From positions 1 to 48,758 of the forward strand of contig JAJYVN010000001.1 of the NCBI GenBank assembly GCA_021791995.1: a DNA stretch of 48,758 nt. The letters are read 5' to 3'. The notes under the pieces are model-generated. The model saw only the letters and a program-made list of their open reading frames with translations, was not told where the DNA came from and ran no database searches. This DNA comes from Bacillota bacterium (GTDB taxonomy: Bacteria > Bacillota > Sulfobacillia > RBS10-35 > JAJYVN01). A program made the position numbers and the translations under genes. Position 1 is the first letter of the stretch. Each line of letters opens with the position of its first letter. Below are positions 25,491 through 32,199 of the stretch, piece by piece.

Positions 25491-26015
25491 TTGGAGCGGC
25501 TCAGGAGGCTGCGTGACGACGCGGGGTTCTTTGGCCCCTTCGGGCCCTATGTGGTGGGCCTGGTGCTGGTAGGTGCGAGTCTGGCGCTTGTCTCGGCGTT
25601 CACCGCGGTGAACGGGCTGTCTCACGACCAGGGCGCGTACGCGGGTGTGCTGTCGGGGGCGGCCAACAGCGCCGCGAGGGACGTGAACGTCCAGGCGCTC
25701 GCCGGTGGGCAGGTCGAGATCGACACGACCAAGGCTCCGACGGCGTTCACGGACTATCTCGTATCCGAGGGCGGGCTGACCAAAACGTCGCCGGGGATCT
25801 TCCAGGCCAGCGCGACGTCGTCGGGTCAGACGGCGGGCCAGACCCCTACGGTCAGCGGCCTTTCGGTGTCACCGTCGCCCTCGACGACTGGCGTACTGGC
25901 GCAAGGTTGGGCGGCCGACGTCTTGCCCCTCCCGGTGCTCGGCACCATGACCGTGCGCCTTCCCGAGAGTGTTAGCGTTGAGCCGCAGGCGAGGCTTGCG
26001 GACACCGTCCCGTAG
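25491..26015 (+). CDS. TadE-like pseudopilin
   Basis: TTG start behind AGGGAGGGAG. The leader MERLRRLRDDAG is followed by a hydrophobic helix, matching the pilin leader. Confidence 0.6.
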   Translation: MERLRRLRDDAGFFGPFGPYVVGLVLVGASLALVSAFTAVNGLSHDQGAYAGVLSGAANSAARDVNVQALAGGQVEIDTTKAPTAFTDYLVSEGGLTKTSPGIFQASATSSGQTAGQTPTVSGLSVSPSPSTTGVLAQGWAADVLPLPVLGTMTVRLPESVSVEPQARLADTVP

Positions 26016-26550
26016 GGCTCGGGTGGAATGCACGTACCGGAGTAGCCCGTCGGTCCCTATGGCGCAGGATGGCCGTACGGATCGGTGTCGGCCTCCATCC
26101 AGATCTCGATTCCGGAGGCTGTCAGGCTGGACCGACGGGCGATCGGTACTCCAATCGCCATCCATAGACAAGGCGACACGTACTCATGTGGTGGAGAAAT
26201 GGCGTGCCGTAGGCGGTTCGGTACAGGAACGCCAAGGCGCGCGCTTCGATTTCCTCTTGGGTCACGTTCGTACCACCTGGAGTTATGGTCGGGGGCACGG
26301 TATGGCCTGGGACCTGCGATGGTTCGGCTCGCTAGGCACTGACGACCCTGCTTATGCGCCATCAATCGCCGGAGGCAGCTTAGTCGACGAGGTCGTTGCT
26401 GAGGCCCGAGTACCTAGCGGCGGCCTGAGCCTGGACGGCGCGCAGCGCCCGACTTGCGCAACACCCTCGCGGCATCGCGCATCTCCATCACGGCCCTAGC
26501 TCCACGCCTTTGAGGAGTGTAGTGCGGTGATCCCGCATTGGTCGTTGCGG

Positions 26551-27120
26551 CTAACGCCTGGACCGGAACGTTGCTAGTTGCCTAGTCACGCCAGTTACCT
26601 GGCGACGATATCGAATCAAATCCACACTAGCGCCAAAGTGCAAGACCATTGCTGCCTCAGACAACTGGCGTCTAGCAGCCCAGAGCAGTGCTGGCCGCGG
26701 CAACTGTAGACAACCGCCTAGCCAACTGGCTTCTGCTTCCTGTTCCTCGTCGTAGTCCCGGAGAGGGTAAGGGAACTCGCTTATCTGGAGAACCATCGAG
26801 GGCTCGTGCTTGCACAGCAAGTGGGCGAGCTCGTGCATGAGGTCGCTCTGTTGTCTCGTCTTTGCGTGCTCTGTATTCCTAATAATTACGGGCTGATCTC
26901 CAACGGAAATTGTCAAGGCCGACCAACTGGACGGATCGGTGAATAGCAATTGCCAAAGTGTGACCGCGTCCATACCGGGAATGTCATGTGGGCCGACGAG
27001 GAAAACACCTAGATGGGAAGCCAATTGTTCGGCTGCTAGGGGATCCTGGGGGTTTAGGTCAAGAGCACGACGCAAGTCCACCGCCCACGCCTCGGATTGG
27101 GTCTTGAATCCTCTTTGCAT
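26551..27120 (-). CDS. ImmA/IrrE-family zinc metallopeptidase
   Basis: HEXXH in DLMHELAHLLCKH. It lies 2 nt downstream of an XRE repressor gene, the immR-immA arrangement. Confidence 0.85.
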   Translation of the reverse strand: MQRGFKTQSEAWAVDLRRALDLNPQDPLAAEQLASHLGVFLVGPHDIPGMDAVTLWQLLFTDPSSWSALTISVGDQPVIIRNTEHAKTRQQSDLMHELAHLLCKHEPSMVLQISEFPYPLRDYDEEQEAEASWLGGCLQLPRPALLWAARRQLSEAAMVLHFGASVDLIRYRRQVTGVTRQLATFRSRR

Positions 27121-27122
27121 GT

Positions 27123-27515
27123 CTATCGCGGACTTGGCTGGGGCCAGTCTCCCCGCCCGGCAGCCTCAAACGCTAAACGGATCATAGTTACCAAGGCCTC
27201 CACTGTTTTGGGATCCAAAGTACGTTGAGCCCGAAGGTGCGCTGTAATTATATCAACATCCGTTGCCGCTGCTTTTTGCGGTTCTGAGCTAACGCTGAGA
27301 TTGTGTGCGAGGTGGTCTGGGGAGACGCCGAGCCACCGGCACAGGCGCAGGAAGGTGTTCAGATCGGGTACATGACCCCTTTCGATTCGTGACAGGGTCG
27401 AGGCGCTGATGCCTCCGATCTCCTTCGCCGCCGCTTGGAGCCCGCGATTACCACGCTTCGTTCGGATCAGCGCAGCTAGTTCAGCAAGGTTCACATCAGA
27501 CACAACTGTGCCCAC
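27123..27515 (-). CDS. XRE-family HTH repressor (ImmR-like); start uncertain (27503 or 27515)
   Basis: LQAAAKEIGGISASTLSRIERGHVPDLNTFLRLCRWLG is a Cro/C1-type HTH. Confidence 0.85.
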   Translation of the reverse strand: MGTVVSDVNLAELAALIRTKRGNRGLQAAAKEIGGISASTLSRIERGHVPDLNTFLRLCRWLGVSPDHLAHNLSVSSEPQKAAATDVDIITAHLRAQRTLDPKTVEALVTMIRLAFEAAGRGDWPQPSPR

Positions 27516-27549
27516 CCTTCCCGTCGCATGAATAAGACGTATTGCGCTC

Positions 27550-27587
27550 TTGCAAGGGGATGGGGTCCTTGCGTATAATGTACGCAA
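27550..27587 (+). promoter_or_regulatory. near-consensus sigma-70-type promoter plus palindromic operator for the Ubl operon
   Basis: TTGCAA (27550-55), 18 nt, then TATAAT (27574-79). The perfect palindrome ttgcgta-taatg-tacgcaa (27569-87) overlaps the -10 box. Extra TTGCG/TGCAA half-sites occur at 27542, 27601 and 27609. Confidence 0.6.
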
Positions 27588-27656
27588 CACGTGTCACGGA
27601 TGCAACACTTGCGATTCGGAACGTGGGGTGACCAGTGTGAGAGGGGGCTGAAAGAA

Positions 27657-27884
27657 GTGGCCGACGGCGCCAAGTACGAGGTGGACATCGAGGGCCGTTT
27701 CTACCCGTGGGATTCAGACGACATCACGACCAAGGACATCATCCGGTTGGCGGGCTTTGCGGCTGGCACCCAAATCATCGAGGTCGATGGCGACAACAAC
27801 CAGCGGACCTTGGGGCCCGAGGAGGTTGTCGAGTTGAAGCCTGGTCATGGCTTCGCCAAGCGACACCGGTTTCGCCGGGGTTAG
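27657..27884 (+). CDS. ubiquitin-like (multiubiquitin/beta-grasp type) protein ending in a free Gly (BilA-like)
   Basis: 75 aa from the GTG behind GAGGGGG (the ORF track starts at 27591). The pattern YEVDIEGRFYPWDSDDITTKDIIRLAG...VVELKPGHGF fits a beta-grasp fold. The C-terminus is ...RHRFRRG followed by the stop. Confidence 0.7.
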   Translation: MADGAKYEVDIEGRFYPWDSDDITTKDIIRLAGFAAGTQIIEVDGDNNQRTLGPEEVVELKPGHGFAKRHRFRRG

Positions 27885-27888
27885 GGCG

Positions 27889-28266
27889 ATGACGCGCATT
27901 GAGCAGGAGTTGGTTCTCCTGCGCTCCAAGTTCCCGGATGCAGCCTTGCAAGGTCAGTGGGTACTGCTGCCGAGCTATCCTGTACCGAACCCCGGGTGGG
28001 GCGCCGACTCCGTCAAGGTCGCCTTCCCAATCCCCGCCGCCTACCCAGCCCAGAAGCCGTATGCCTTCTACGTCTCACCCCCTCTTAGGGTGGGCGCCTC
28101 GATCCCCGGAAATGCCACTGAGGCGTCTGATCCGGTCTTCGATGGGGAATGGACCAAGTTTTCATGGGACTGTCAGGACTGGTCGCCGGCGGCGGAAGTC
28201 GCGGGAGGCTCCAACTTGCTGCACTGGGCGCTAAGCTTCCACGAGCGCCTAAAGGATTACTCATGA
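27889..28266 (+). CDS. prokaryotic E2-like (UBC-fold) protein (BilB-like)
   Basis: 125 aa, starting 4 nt after the Ubl stop. VKVAFPIPAAYPAQKPYAFYV resembles the E2 core. There is a single Cys (FSWDCQDW). Supported by context between Ubl and JAB/E1. Confidence 0.65.
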   Translation: MTRIEQELVLLRSKFPDAALQGQWVLLPSYPVPNPGWGADSVKVAFPIPAAYPAQKPYAFYVSPPLRVGASIPGNATEASDPVFDGEWTKFSWDCQDWSPAAEVAGGSNLLHWALSFHERLKDYS

Positions 28267-28796
28267 CCATCGAGGTCCGACTGACGTCGGAGGAGTGGAT
28301 TCTACTCCGTCAGCATCTGTTTCAGAATTCCAAGGAGCATGCCGCGTTTGCCTTTTGCAAACTGGCGCGGGGAGACGACGGAGTGGCCCTGGTATCGGAG
28401 GACCTATATCTTGCCGTCCGGTCGGACTTCGAATTGCAGTTGGAATACCATATTACGCTTAGCGATGAGACCCTTGCGCGGCTGATTAAGAAAGCGTGGG
28501 ATCATGACCACTGTATTGTGGAGTTTCACTCCCATCCAAAGTCCCCCGGTGGGGTGAGTTTCTCGCCGAGTGACCTTGATGGGCTAGCAGACGTCGTTCC
28601 GTACATCGGTTGGCGGTTACGGGGACGGCCATACGCAGCGGTCGTTGTCGGACTCAAGGAGATAGACGCCTTGGCCTGGGTCGATGACTTCACGGTTCCG
28701 CAGCGACTGGATGTGGTGCGAGTGGGCAATGACAAGCTGCTACCAAGTCAGATTACTATATCTGAACTGGAGGGCGACTATGGGGAGATTCAGTAG
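28263..28796 (+). CDS. JAB/MPN+ (JAMM) metallo-isopeptidase (BilC-like)
   Basis: Glu in NSKEHAAFAF, and HSHPKSPGGVSFSPSD matches HxH-x9-S-xx-D. ATGA overlap with the E2 gene. Confidence 0.9.
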   Translation: MTIEVRLTSEEWILLRQHLFQNSKEHAAFAFCKLARGDDGVALVSEDLYLAVRSDFELQLEYHITLSDETLARLIKKAWDHDHCIVEFHSHPKSPGGVSFSPSDLDGLADVVPYIGWRLRGRPYAAVVVGLKEIDALAWVDDFTVPQRLDVVRVGNDKLLPSQITISELEGDYGEIQ

Positions 28797-29637
28797 GCAG
28801 ATCCTTCTGTTCGGCGACGAGGGGCAACAGGTCCTTAGCAACATTCGGGTCGCGATCATCGGGCTAGGCGGGCTCGGGAGCCATGTTTCGCAGCAACTCG
28901 CATATCTAGGCATTCGCAAGTTCGGCCTTGTGGACGGCGACATGGTGGAGGAGACCAATCTTAACCGCTTGATCGGCGCTACCGCCGACGACGTCCCAGC
29001 AAGTCGGCCGAAGGTGGACGTCGCCGAACGTATGATCAAAGCGGTCGATCCGGAAGTCCAGGTAGAGCGGGTTGGTAAGTCGTTCATCTCGCTGGAGGGC
29101 CGCGCCCTGCTTAGCGAGGCCGATTTTGTCATCGGCTGTGTCGACAATGACGGCGCGCGCCTTGCGCTCACGGCTGTATGTGCGGCGCTTCACAAGCCCT
29201 ATATGGACGTGGCTACTGACATCGACCCGGATGACACGCCGATCAACTATGGAGGTCGTATCATCTTCGCTAAGGGCGCCTCCGGCTGCTGTCACTGTCT
29301 GGGCGCCCTCGACGATCGTGAAATAGAGCGTTGGATGGGGAGTGAGGACCAGCTCGCGGCAGACGACAGAATCTACGGGAGTGGTGCAGCGGGGCCTAGT
29401 CCCTCGGTTGTTTGTCTCAATGGCGTTCTGGCCTCGGCGGCCTGTCTGGAGTTCATGGTCGAGGTCACAGGCCTACGGGAAGCAAACCGTTGGCTTGAAT
29501 ACGACGGTCCGTCCGGGAAAATGCGAGTTGACTCCACCGTTCCCACAGGCTGGTGCCCGTACTGTGAGTCCTTTAAGTACGGCAGCACTGAGTATGTCGA
29601 CTGGATGCTATCCCGCCTGCCGCAAACTCATCGTTAG
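28780..29637 (+). CDS. ThiF/MoeB/E1-like adenylyltransferase (BilD-like)
   Basis: IIGLGGLGSHV (nucleotide loop), ETNLNRL and GCVDNDGARL. Cys pairs CCHC and CPYC. 17-nt overlap with the JAB gene. Confidence 0.9.
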   Translation: MGRFSRQILLFGDEGQQVLSNIRVAIIGLGGLGSHVSQQLAYLGIRKFGLVDGDMVEETNLNRLIGATADDVPASRPKVDVAERMIKAVDPEVQVERVGKSFISLEGRALLSEADFVIGCVDNDGARLALTAVCAALHKPYMDVATDIDPDDTPINYGGRIIFAKGASGCCHCLGALDDREIERWMGSEDQLAADDRIYGSGAAGPSPSVVCLNGVLASAACLEFMVEVTGLREANRWLEYDGPSGKMRVDSTVPTGWCPYCESFKYGSTEYVDWMLSRLPQTHR

Positions 29638-29853
29638 CGGATGGTCCAAGCCGGGTTCGGCTTACTGTGCACTTGTCTTGGATGCAGTTGCTGCCGTACC
29701 CGCATTAGGCCGGCGTAGTAACTCCGGAGTGCCCCTGGCCTGGCCCGCGATTGCAGGTCGCCGACGTCGATCACCGGATGCGCCAATTTTACCGTGCGAC
29801 TGGTAGGAAGTGGGTCGCCCGTGCCGAACAGTGTCGGCACGGGGAGGTGCTCC

Positions 29854-30480
29854 GTGCACGGAGGCATCGTTCGCCAGATCGACGAGCTCGGCCGCATCGT
29901 GATACCAGCGGAGGTCCGTAGGGTCTTCGGCATCGAGGACGACACGCGGGTCGAGATGTTCCTGGACGGCGAGAAGATCGTCCTCAAGGTCCATCGGCCG
30001 GGGTGCGTGTTCTGCGGTGGCGTGGAGGACACGCGCGAGTACCGGGGTCGGCACATGTGCCGATCCTGCGCTTTTCATGTGTTCACGGAGTTTGAGGGGG
30101 CGCCGTCAGAGGTGGGTTGGCCCGCGACGGCCGGCGGTGACGCTGGGGCACCGGGCGTATGGTCCCCTCTCCCGGAGCAGGCAGCGAGGGAATGGGTCGC
30201 GAAGGAACTCCGCCTGCGGGGCTGGCAAGTTGACGAATCCGGGCGCGCTGGGCGTTCCGTGGACTTGGTGGCCTGGACCGCAACTCGGACTTGGTACCTT
30301 CAGGTCAGGGCCTTCCAGGGCGGCCAGCCCGAGTGGCCCACCGGCCACCAACTCGGATGGCTTAAGGGCGCTGCCAGACGGAAGGATGCGACTGCTGTGG
30401 TGGCGTTTGTGCGTGCGTTGGCGCCGACTTGGGCGGTGGAGTTCTGGTCAGCGCACGCCTTTCGAAAGCTGGAGACTTAG
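29854..30480 (+). CDS. AbrB/SpoVT-type DNA-binding domain fused to a Cys4 ribbon and a YraN/PD-(D/E)xK-like fold
   Basis: GIVRQIDELGRIVIPAEVRRVFGIEDDTRVEMFLDGEKIVLK closely matches the AbrB N-terminal domain. CVFCGG...CRSC follows. The C-terminal AREWVAKELRLRGWQV...SVDLVAW...WYLQVRAF resembles the YraN-type nuclease fold, but with Q/R where E/K are expected. Confidence 0.8.
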   Translation: MHGGIVRQIDELGRIVIPAEVRRVFGIEDDTRVEMFLDGEKIVLKVHRPGCVFCGGVEDTREYRGRHMCRSCAFHVFTEFEGAPSEVGWPATAGGDAGAPGVWSPLPEQAAREWVAKELRLRGWQVDESGRAGRSVDLVAWTATRTWYLQVRAFQGGQPEWPTGHQLGWLKGAARRKDATAVVAFVRALAPTWAVEFWSAHAFRKLET

Positions 30481-30573
30481 CTTCGCCCCGGGAATCTCCC
30501 TTGGGACCGGCCCAGACGGCGGAGCGGCGATCCGTATGTACGGAGTATGCTTGCTACAGAGGGAGATGAGCCC

Positions 30574-32199
30574 ATGCCGCTGTTGAACTTCAAAGGCAAG
30601 ACGTTCGTGCAGAGTCATCACTTGACGGTACCCTACCACACGCTGGTGCCAGTACCGGAGAGGAGTCTGACGGAACAGGTTCGCCTCGATGACAACCTAA
30701 TCATTCATGGTGATAACCTTGCGGCTCTAAAGGCGCTCTTGCCCGTGTACGCAGGCAAGGTGAAGTGCATCTATATTGACCCTCCGTACAATACTGGCAC
30801 TGAAAACTGGATCTATAATGATAACGTAAATTCTCCAATGATCCGAGATTGGCTTGGCAGGGTCGTGGACAGAGAAGATCTGACGCGCCATGATAAGTGG
30901 CTGTGCATGATGACCCCGCGTCTTCGACTATTGCGCGAATTGCTCCGAGACGATGGCGCCATCTTCGTCAGTTGCGATGACAACGAGCAGCATCACTTGA
31001 GGATGCTGATGGACGTAGTCTTCGGAGAAACGAATTTTGTCGCCAACTTGATATGGCAGAAGAAGTATGCATCGGCAAACGACCATAAGTCCATTGCGCC
31101 GATGCACGACTTCATCGTGGTGTATCAGAAGTCGGACCTGTTCCATCGCAACCTGCTTCCTAGAACCGAGGACAAGGATCGGCAGTACCGCTTTGAGGAC
31201 GAGCGCGGGGTATTCCGGCCCGACAACTACACATGCAACAAGACAGCAGACGAACGGCCTAACTTGTATTACCCTATTGTCAATCCGAACACCGGTGACG
31301 AGATTTGGCCAAAGCGGACGGCAGTGTGGCGTTACACGAGAGCTCGGCATGAGCAGAATGTTGCGAGTGGTCTGGTCTACTGGGGGAAGGACGGGCGCGG
31401 CAGTGTCCCAGCCTTTAAGCGGTACAAGGCGGGCTTGCGTGGCGGTGGCGGCATTGTCCCAAACACCTGGTGGACATTTGACGTTGCCGGACACACAGAT
31501 GAAGCCAAGAAGGAGATCCGCGGTATGGGTCTCGAAGCTGATGAACTTGACTTCATTACACCAAAACCGAGCCGCCTCATTCAGCGTATTCTCCAGATCG
31601 CAACCGACAAGGACTCTATAGTTCTTGACGCGTTCGCCGGGTCTGGAACAACGGCGCATGCCGTCTTGGCCGCCAACAGACAAGACGGAGGCAGTCGCCG
31701 ATTCATCCTGATCGAGATGGAGGACTACGCTGATTCCATCACGGCACAGCGCGTGCGCCGTGTTATAAAGGGTCTTCCCGGGGCGAAGGATCGGGCGATG
31801 AGCGAAGGGTTGGGGGGGAGCTTCTCCTACTTTGAGGTGGGTCCGGCGATTGAGCCAGAGGGCCTGCTAACGGGTGAAGCCCTCCCCCCCTTCAGAGAAC
31901 TGGCGCGCTATGTCTTTTACACAGCGACGGGTGAGGAGTTCCGGCCCGAGGTATTAGACGAAGCCCGCCGGTTCATTGGCTCGAGCGGTGAGTACGACGT
32001 GTACCTTCTATACGAGCCAGACATTGAGAAACTCAAGTCGCTGGCACTCAACCTCGAGTTCGCGGAGCGCCTCGGCAAGCCGGCCGATGGGAAGAGGCGG
32101 CTTGTGTTTGCGCCCGCCCGTTTCCTCACTGACCGGTACATGGAGCAGTATCGGATCGAGTACGCTCAACTGCCCCACGAGATGTACAAGACCCGTTGA
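30574..32199 (+). CDS. mod: Type III restriction-modification methyltransferase (Mod; beta-class N6A/N4C)
   Basis: DPPYNT (motif IV) precedes DAFAGSGTTAHAV (motif I). It is followed 23 nt later by a Res helicase-nuclease gene. Confidence 0.9.
   Translation: MPLLNFKGKTFVQSHHLTVPYHTLVPVPERSLTEQVRLDDNLIIHGDNLAALKALLPVYAGKVKCIYIDPPYNTGTENWIYNDNVNSPMIRDWLGRVVDREDLTRHDKWLCMMTPRLRLLRELLRDDGAIFVSCDDNEQHHLRMLMDVVFGETNFVANLIWQKKYASANDHKSIAPMHDFIVVYQKSDLFHRNLLPRTEDKDRQYRFEDERGVFRPDNYTCNKTADERPNLYYPIVNPNTGDEIWPKRTAVWRYTRARHEQNVASGLVYWGKDGRGSVPAFKRYKAGLRGGGGIVPNTWWTFDVAGHTDEAKKEIRGMGLEADELDFITPKPSRLIQRILQIATDKDSIVLDAFAGSGTTAHAVLAANRQDGGSRRFILIEMEDYADSITAQRVRRVIKGLPGAKDRAMSEGLGGSFSYFEVGPAIEPEGLLTGEALPPFRELARYVFYTATGEEFRPEVLDEARRFIGSSGEYDVYLLYEPDIEKLKSLALNLEFAERLGKPADGKRRLVFAPARFLTDRYMEQYRIEYAQLPHEMYKTR

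Follow-up and report, generated by a model that had tools for sequence, protein, structure and literature searches.

Among the closest described systems is the CapH/CapP pair, in which CapH represses, needs dimerization for DNA binding and is cut by CapP at F82|R83, while single-stranded DNA (ssDNA) and DNA damage activate CapP (Lau et al., 2022, 10.1101/2022.04.27.489752). The same work lists CapH/CapP with the 6a and 6e ubiquitin-related operons, and in other surveys capH-capP was found divergent from 25 of 162 (15%) Type II Bil operons (Chambers et al., PMC10557695) and CapH/CapP at 168 of 544 (31%) Bub operons (Ye et al., PMC11601596). The general principle, CapH/CapP-type control of operons for ubiquitin-like (Ubl) proteins, is already published. 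Here, a further locus of this kind is analyzed in a window of 48,758 nt, the term used below for the whole stretch of DNA studied (Bacillota bacterium assembly GCA_021791995.1, contig JAJYVN010000001.1, positions 1–48,758). In this window, an XRE repressor gene and an M78 peptidase gene on the minus strand stand divergent from a Ubl-E2-JAB-E1 operon on the plus strand. It is probable, and we hold this with good confidence, that the two genes form a CapH/CapP-like repressor–protease switch of ImmR/ImmA size that controls the divergent operon and probably its own promoter too. Four lines of evidence carry this reading: which genes are present, how constantly they are paired and oriented among relatives, the conserved operator architecture and the covariation of protein and DNA. 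Of the interpretation offered in an earlier note on this DNA, the proteolytic derepression is sound, the operator unit needs correcting, and the claim of novelty, namely that signal-induced control of a Ubl system would be unusual, fails, CapH/CapP having been published beside such operons in 2022–2024.

The gene content is straightforward. The repressor, a CapH/ImmR-like protein of 126 aa (27123–27503, minus strand), matches Pfam HTH_3 (1.2e-9), and its stop codon TAG lies 2 nt from the ATG of the co-oriented gene for a short CapP/ImmA-like zinc peptidase of 189 aa (26551–27120, minus strand), which matches Peptidase_M78 (PF06114, IrrE N-terminal-like, 1.5e-12) and contains the motif HELAH. 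Pfam matches and open reading frames (ORFs) thus confirm the arrangement given in the earlier note, an XRE repressor and a HEXXH protease 2 nt apart, co-oriented and divergent from the Ubl operon. The repressor frame stays open up to 27590, and the GTG at 27503 was assigned as its start by alignment of 31 homologues; the ribosome-binding stretch GGGAAGGGTGGG precedes it. With this start, the spacer between the XRE gene and the Ubl gene (which begins at 27657) measures 153 bp, where about 140 bp had been given earlier. The two regulator proteins and the Ubl, E2 and JAB proteins of the operon are all without a named NCBIfam family, and an Rfam search of 26000–30600 returned zero matches.

The pairing of the two regulator genes and their position opposite a conjugation operon are recurrent. 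In 88 loci found via the XRE protein, the XRE gene has an M78 gene a few nt behind it wherever the contig permits. The divergent neighbours were counted at 41 loci, redundancy removed, whose upstream sequence extends over 2.2 kb or more: they comprise a Multi_ubiq-DUF6791-BubE (Bub-type) operon at eight loci, a Ubl-E2-JAB/E1 or other ThiF-containing operon at nine, a clear type II cyclic-oligonucleotide-based antiphage signaling system (CBASS; CD-NTase-Cap2-Cap3) at two, weaker CBASS-like matches at five and unclassified genes at 17. Cargo of the Ubl/E1 type is therefore present at 17 or more of the 41 loci. Close XRE homologues adjoin type II CBASS in the loci L015 and L032, and on a RefSeq plasmid of Rhizobium ruizarguesonis the genes for multiubiquitin, an E2-sized protein and a ThiF adenylyltransferase are transcribed divergently from those for a helix-turn-helix (HTH) protein and an ImmA/IrrE metallo-endopeptidase. 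In two relatives, CBASS genes come directly after the CapH/CapP-controlled Ubl-E2-JAB/E1 operon and share its orientation, patatin and CD-NTase in one (L011:1182–3622) and SMODS, E2-CBASS and SAVED in the other (L012:1–2076); both systems could there be co-transcribed from one regulated promoter.

This habit bears on the proposal that the pair serves an integrative element or prophage as its ImmR/ImmA immunity module, controlling excision or lytic genes, and that its adjacency to the Ubl genes is incidental. The gene order, the sizes of 126 and 189 aa and the GAF-less peptidase do resemble ImmR/ImmA of ICEBs1, and the region is a horizontally acquired island of low GC: the island around the module has 58–60% GC against about 67%, and over 26–40 kb the content is 57–62% against about 65–68% elsewhere. 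This stretch carries the XRE/M78 pair, the Ubl operon, a type III restriction-modification (R-M) system and a DEAD/ResIII helicase gene. However, no integrase, excisionase, phage or ICE-like genes were found flanking the pair, no integrase is present among the ORFs scanned from 22 to 44 kb, and the window contains no tRNA gene. A collection of 50,697 phage genomes yielded no XRE homologue at E≤1e-8, the relatives repeatedly face Ubl/E1 or CBASS operons, and the operators described below span the promoter region common to both transcription units. Taken together, this makes an immunity module extremely unlikely.

The third line of evidence comes from the DNA between the divergent genes. The statistics were obtained from 77 non-identical 200-nt regions upstream of relatives of the XRE protein, which share a common architecture despite very different base composition. 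Their conserved unit is a 16-bp palindrome, GTTKC-N6-GMAAC (K, G or T; M, A or C), extended to TGTTKCA...TGMAACA and present in two to four copies at fixed positions. Perfect sites number 30 in these regions and sites with one mismatch 100, where shuffled sequences give 0.015 and 1.2. Plotted as a histogram, the spacings between half-sites show a single sharp maximum at N6 (30 pairs), and everted half-sites give a second peak at N3 (22 pairs), which arises from two sites lying in tandem about 19 bp apart. When 15 promoter regions were aligned with MAFFT (alignment A3), they proved collinear, and the invariant columns are the half-sites, the ATAC of the site named O1 below and a central GCAA. 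The half-site sequence also varies together with the protein. Residue 34 opens the recognition helix. Where it is alanine, as in the window, the ratio of GTTGC to GTTTC half-sites is 89:114; where it is proline, valine, isoleucine, serine or phenylalanine, the half-sites are almost only GTTTC (7:87). The association has a Fisher P value of 4e-11, uncorrected for phylogeny, and such covariation is expected if the XRE protein reads this motif.

The spacer in the window follows this plan. A promoter scan of both strands of 26300–28000 gave TTGCAA-N18-TATAAT as the sole sigma-70-like match, with the −35 hexamer TTGCAA at 27550–27555 and the −10 hexamer TATAAT at 27574–27579, both on the plus strand and directed toward the Ubl gene, so that the near-consensus promoter recognized earlier stands. 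In relatives, TTGCAA or TTGCGC occurs 16–18 nt from a TATNAT box, the −35 and −10 elements directed at the cargo are kept in position, and the −35 regions of both divergent promoters lie back to back. The Ubl transcript is predicted to start near 27586. For the repressor gene, the position of a promoter of its own can be deduced from the relatives alone and is best regarded as provisional.

Four candidate operators, all without an assigned strand, can be placed on this map. O1, GTATAATGTACGCAAC (27573–27588), lies over the −10 box, in agreement with the earlier placing of an operator there; by the position weight matrix (PWM) built from the relatives it scores 14.9 bits, ranking first in the window and sixth in the genome, and it is homologous to the element GTTGC-N6-RATAC conserved in relatives. 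O2, GTGTCACGGATGCAAC (27591–27606), would cover about +5 to +20 of the predicted transcript; it scores 14.3 bits (second in the window, ninth in the genome), has one mismatch from the consensus and forms an 18-bp direct repeat with O1. O3, ATTGCGCTCTTGCAAG (27541–27556), is an operator-like site that overlaps the −35 hexamer, differs from GTTKC-N6-GMAAC at two positions and scores below 5 bits by the family PWM, and it holds the invariant GCAA columns of alignment A3. The weak operator-like site O4, GTCGCATGAATAAGAC (27523–27538), has three mismatches and 8.6 bits, the fourth best score in the window, and sits where relatives carry the −10 box of the repressor promoter. Measured from the XRE start, O1, O2, O3 and O4 are found at −85, −103, −53 and −35, and in many relatives sites occur at about −81, −100, −53 and −34. 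The 3.1-Mb genome contains only 35 positions scoring at least 12 bits, among them O1 and O2, 18 bp apart. The excess of half-sites reported before is also real: the 153-bp spacer contains seven TTGCR/YGCAA pentamers where 0.55 would be expected (Poisson 2e-6), a number that no stretch of equal length in the 48.7-kb window exceeds and that none of 5000 shuffles reached. These features exceed chance expectation. The further half-sites of the earlier note are the halves of O2 and O3.

The operator unit itself is a different matter. The earlier note took the palindrome TTGCGTA-N5-TACGCAA for the operator, and this rival reading, in which the 19-bp repeat binds one XRE dimer and the other TTGCG/TGCAA pentamers serve as auxiliary half-sites, has visible merits. 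The repeat is perfect, as claimed, and covers the −10 box (27569–27587, no strand assigned). No other sequence in the window matches it with fewer than three mismatches, and only one other perfect copy exists in the 3.1-Mb genome. That second copy, at C72:477–495 (L001), was considered as a site and judged a chance occurrence: it lies inside the coding sequence of argS, encodes DIAYHIRK and is not among the high-scoring sites of the family PWM (an unrelated XRE-family gene follows argS on the same contig). In the relatives, however, its spacing does not rise above background. The half-sites of the palindrome are 16 bp apart from centre to centre, against 11 bp in the conserved unit, and in the 77 upstream regions TTKC-N11-GMAA occurs four times and GTTKC-N9-GMAAC not at all, compared to 38 and 30 occurrences of the corresponding motifs with N6 spacing. 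The recognition helix of the window protein, SASTLSRIE, is that of the relatives, and hence the same 11-bp geometry is expected. In addition, the arm closer to the −35 box has an outer GCAA that alignment A3 does not show as conserved. O1 takes in only the GTA (27573–27575) of the left arm, while the right arm holds the conserved GCAAC of O1. We therefore consider it unlikely that the 19-bp repeat is the operator unit; the palindrome is best read as an extension of O1 specific to the window.

The repressor consists of an N-terminal HTH (residues 6–71), a variable linker, a conserved C-terminal motif AHL|RADRTLDP, in which the bar marks the predicted cut, and then a helix. Its 154 homologues (37–63% identity) are nearly all of 112–137 aa; linker, motif and helix recur in them, and their recognition-helix region S-x-S-T-L-S-R-I/V-E-x-G is invariant. 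L90 and R91 are kept in at least 90% of the 31 aligned homologues, and both the alignment and the structure model place a conserved helix at residues 98–117, C-terminal to L90-R91. Fold matches of the model include DdrO, the N-terminal domain of CapH and ImmR. By analogy, the most likely cleavage site is L90|R91, a prediction that matches the hydrophobic|Arg sites reported for CapH, such as F82|R83.

The peptidase has 322 homologues, and the best 120 of these are nearly all of 183–204 aa. Across 32 of them, R89, H96-E97-x-x-H100, H105 and E128/E130 are conserved; R89 is invariant and C137 nearly so. The AlphaFold model of the 189-aa protein has a pLDDT of 89, and its best fold matches in the PDB are CapP from Thauera (7t5t), Deinococcus PprI with ssDNA (8sln) and IrrE (3dte). 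A sequence search of the PDB with the peptidase gave no match, so that CapP and IrrE emerged from the fold search only, and the PADLOC match to capP is weak (E=0.0016). In the model, residues 142–188 form four helices, the counterpart of the HTH-like linker in CapP and IrrE, and no alpha/beta GAF domain is present. No cysteine-switch loop is present either: there is no cysteine between H105 and E128, and the conserved C137 follows the third zinc ligand. Such a loop is found in 33% of CBASS CapPs and hence is not strictly defining. In canonical CapP and IrrE, the GAF domain provides one half of the groove that binds ssDNA; a 2026 preprint (PMC13228613) locates this groove where peptidase and GAF domains meet and assigns key residues to GAF.

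The lack of a GAF sensor domain is one of the arguments for another view of the pair, according to which the XRE protein merely represses its own gene or the operon and never undergoes cleavage, and the M78 protein acts on another substrate, for example as the toxin of an Xre-COG2856 toxin-antitoxin-like pair or as a protease directed against phage or Ubl-pathway proteins. XRE-COG2856 pairs have been proposed as toxin-antitoxin-like modules, and PADLOC gives weak RmrA matches for both the XRE protein and the peptidase. Against this stand three features of the proteins themselves: the conserved C-terminal hydrophobic|Arg motif of L90 and R91, a kind of site at which CapH is cut; the invariant R89, whose counterpart R90 in CapP contacts ssDNA; and the nearest solved folds, CapP, PprI and IrrE, which all cleave repressors. 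A repressor that is never cleaved is in our opinion very unlikely.

For the preferred reading, a repressor–protease switch, the following mechanism can be proposed. Dimers or tetramers of the XRE protein would bind the (T)GTTKC-N6-GMAAC(A) palindromes of 16–18 bp, as deduced from the conserved sites. Repressor bound at O1 (over the −10 box), O2 (past the start), O3 (at the −35 box) and O4 (near its own promoter) would exclude RNA polymerase from both promoters. Upon a stress signal, the M78 peptidase would, by analogy, cut the C-terminal oligomerization region of the repressor, most likely at L90|R91; the cleaved repressor would then leave the DNA and the Ubl operon would be induced. The operon is very probably inducible and responsive to stress or phage rather than a housekeeping unit. 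This model is weakest as regards the inducing signal. As the peptidase has no GAF domain, the trigger could be ssDNA held in some other manner, or a signal of another kind.

Several observations weigh against the switch as proposed. The loci that define the motif are mutually related, so the shuffle and Fisher P values overstate their independence. The promoter scan of the window turned up no good match to a consensus promoter ahead of the repressor gene, and two of the four sites are weak (O3 with less than 5 bits, O4 with 8.6). The peptidase is without both the GAF domain and the cysteine-switch loop, and the published mechanism of ssDNA activation is therefore not simply transferable to it. 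Finally, orthologues of the exact four-gene cargo mostly carry other regulators. The neighbourhoods of homologous Ubl operons, whose comparison for XRE–ImmA pairs had been suggested, give a mixed answer: a pair of the XRE+M78 type occurs in L096, where it is unrelated to that of the window and divergent, and in L100, where an XRE and an M78-like protein are co-oriented, while L097 and L098 have regulators of another kind. In these two (L097:967–1982 and L098:2340–3321), the operon is preceded by an HTH protein of 135–155 aa (...RVSQI(L/F)SG.ENLTLRS(L/F)AA...) and a conserved protein of 183–188 aa that has no Pfam match (...NAWPYWREYLSSTLNRA...), which may represent another two-gene type of regulator for Ubl operons. 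The variety of regulators at orthologous cargo indicates that the pairing is modular and not obligatory, regulator and cargo being exchangeable.

The cargo consists of four genes on the plus strand. The Ubl (75 aa; 27657–27884) has a Multi_ubiq beta-grasp domain (PF14452, 1.1e-5) and ends in RRG-stop, which means that its C-terminal glycine is already exposed; its orthologue in L096 ends in KFRRG. It is followed by an E2-like protein of the Prok-E2_E family (125 aa; 27889–28266; PF14462, 1.4e-8), with E2 genes also present in L096, L098 and L100, by a JAB/JAMM peptidase encoded by a separate gene (177 aa; 28263–28796; weak match to PF14464) and by a small single-domain E1 of the ThiF fold (285 aa; 28780–29637; PF00899, 5e-41). 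The best solved relative of the E1 is the E1 part of Citrobacter BubCD (9ea5), followed by ThiF and MoeB. The JAB gene overlaps the E1 gene by 17 nt. Several relatives have a JAB-E1 fusion of 457–495 aa, some versions of the orthologous operon have one of 435–465 aa, and the possibility that the split is a frameshifted fused gene was considered and rejected: orthologous operons likewise have separate JAB genes of 174–176 aa overlapping E1, and the E1 has a normal ThiF N-terminus. Orthologous four-gene operons are widespread (E1 identity 40–64%), and unfused ones with an E1 of 260–295 aa are common in metagenomes, including archaeal records. A scan of GTDB genome contigs with the E1 gave only distant ThiF relatives and no orthologous operons, and a search of 400 genomes from its phylum found the E1 in no genome but that of the window, which fits horizontal acquisition. 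None of the four proteins has a Bil/ISG15-like match in PADLOC.

The interval from the Ubl operon to the type III R-M system encodes, at 29794–30480, an AbrB/MazE-domain fusion protein with paralogues on contigs C233, C349 and C50, of which the C233 copy is 44% identical over 209 aa. The same genome also has a second Ubl system on another contig (C170:1645–3447, L105), consisting of Multi_ubiq, DUF6791, a 133-aa protein and BubE (PF20137, 5e-25). It is 45–50% identical to the Bub-type cargo regulated by relatives of the XRE/M78 pair, has no adjacent CapH/CapP and has a gene for a ClpP/SppA-like serine protease upstream. Regulation of this system in trans by the pair in the window was considered and rejected, since no operator-like site is found there.

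What is new here is modest: a GAF-less clade of peptidases, a deduced operator code with its four-site layout, and an unfused, BubE-less four-gene cargo with a small E1. A bolder proposal joins these points. It assumes that the clade of about 188 aa, having no GAF domain, cannot form the ssDNA groove between peptidase and GAF and would be switched on by a signal or partner other than that of canonical CapP or IrrE; that, together with its repressors, it uses a new operator code of two to four (T)GTTKC-N6-GMAAC(A) sites in which the choice of G or T is set by residue 34; and that in the window it controls an undescribed family of unfused, BubE-less Ubl-E2-JAB-E1 operons with a small E1. We put this forward tentatively and regard it, as a whole, as possible but rather doubtful. 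The triggers of the clade may include RecA, as with ImmA, ssDNA that a dimer binds, a protein of a phage, or a metal or redox state. The clade is of interest in this respect, as its peptidase is without the known ssDNA-sensing domain of CapP and IrrE. The operator consensus and site map apply to a large CapH/CapP-like clade, with hundreds of metagenomic members and members on plasmids of Rhizobium, Hymenobacter and others, and the consensus is usable for predicting regulated promoters. The case also adds to the view of bacterial ubiquitin-like pathways as a part of the defence and stress repertoire.

The comparison with known systems can be made separately for the cargo and for the switch. The gene order Ubl-E2-JAB-E1 in the window is that of Bil operons; however, the E1 of 285 aa has a single adenylation domain, whereas the Bil definition includes an E1 of the type IAD-AAD-CYS (PMC11601596), and the operon does not fit that definition. 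Bub operons are similar in the Pfam families Multi_ubiq and Prok-E2_E and in the best solved E1 relative, from Citrobacter BubCD. By definition, however, they have a BubE/DUF6527 gene and fused Ubl-E2, JAB-E1 or E2-E1 genes, whereas in the window, as in the orthologues, the four genes are unfused and the operon has no BubE; PF20137 is absent from the window, and its only match in the genome is on contig C170. The Bub definition does not fit the operon exactly either.

As for the switch, DdrO/IrrE (PprI) of Deinococcus also comprises an XRE repressor cut in its C-terminal dimerization domain by an M78 peptidase (a cut that is predicted here), has palindromic operators and shows clear fold similarity (8sln, 3dte). 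IrrE, however, has a GAF domain, and the system acts on a genome-wide regulon from unlinked genes, whereas the genes in the window are adjacent and, outside the tandem O1/O2, the sites of at least 12 bits in their genome are scattered single sites. ImmR/ImmA of ICEBs1 (Bacillus subtilis) and the phage phi105-type pairs come closer in construction: the repressor gene precedes the protease gene at a distance of a few nt, the sizes are similar, the M78 protease is short and GAF-less as in the window, and derepression occurs by proteolysis of the repressor, as is proposed here. In contrast to these pairs, the one in the window would control a Ubl conjugation operon and has no integrase, excisionase or conjugation genes under its control. 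CapH/CapP of the E. coli MS115-1 and Thauera sp. K11 CBASS differs in that its peptidase is of about 280 aa, compared to 189 aa in the window, where the C-terminal GAF domain and the cysteine-switch loop are missing; in addition, the E. coli CapH site is of 22 bp and lies upstream of −35, whereas the sites described here overlap −35, −10 and the transcription start. The likeness nevertheless extends from the genes to single residues. In both, an XRE HTH repressor with a C-terminal oligomerization region is followed by an M78 HExxH peptidase, and the pair is divergent from a defence operon with which it has a common promoter region, here the 153-bp spacer. The zinc ligands are H96, H100 and E128/130 in the window and H96, H100 and E129 in Thauera CapP, and the arginine equivalent to R90 is retained. 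The peptidase is ImmA-like by size and architecture, and its fold and genomic habit mark it as a short CapP.

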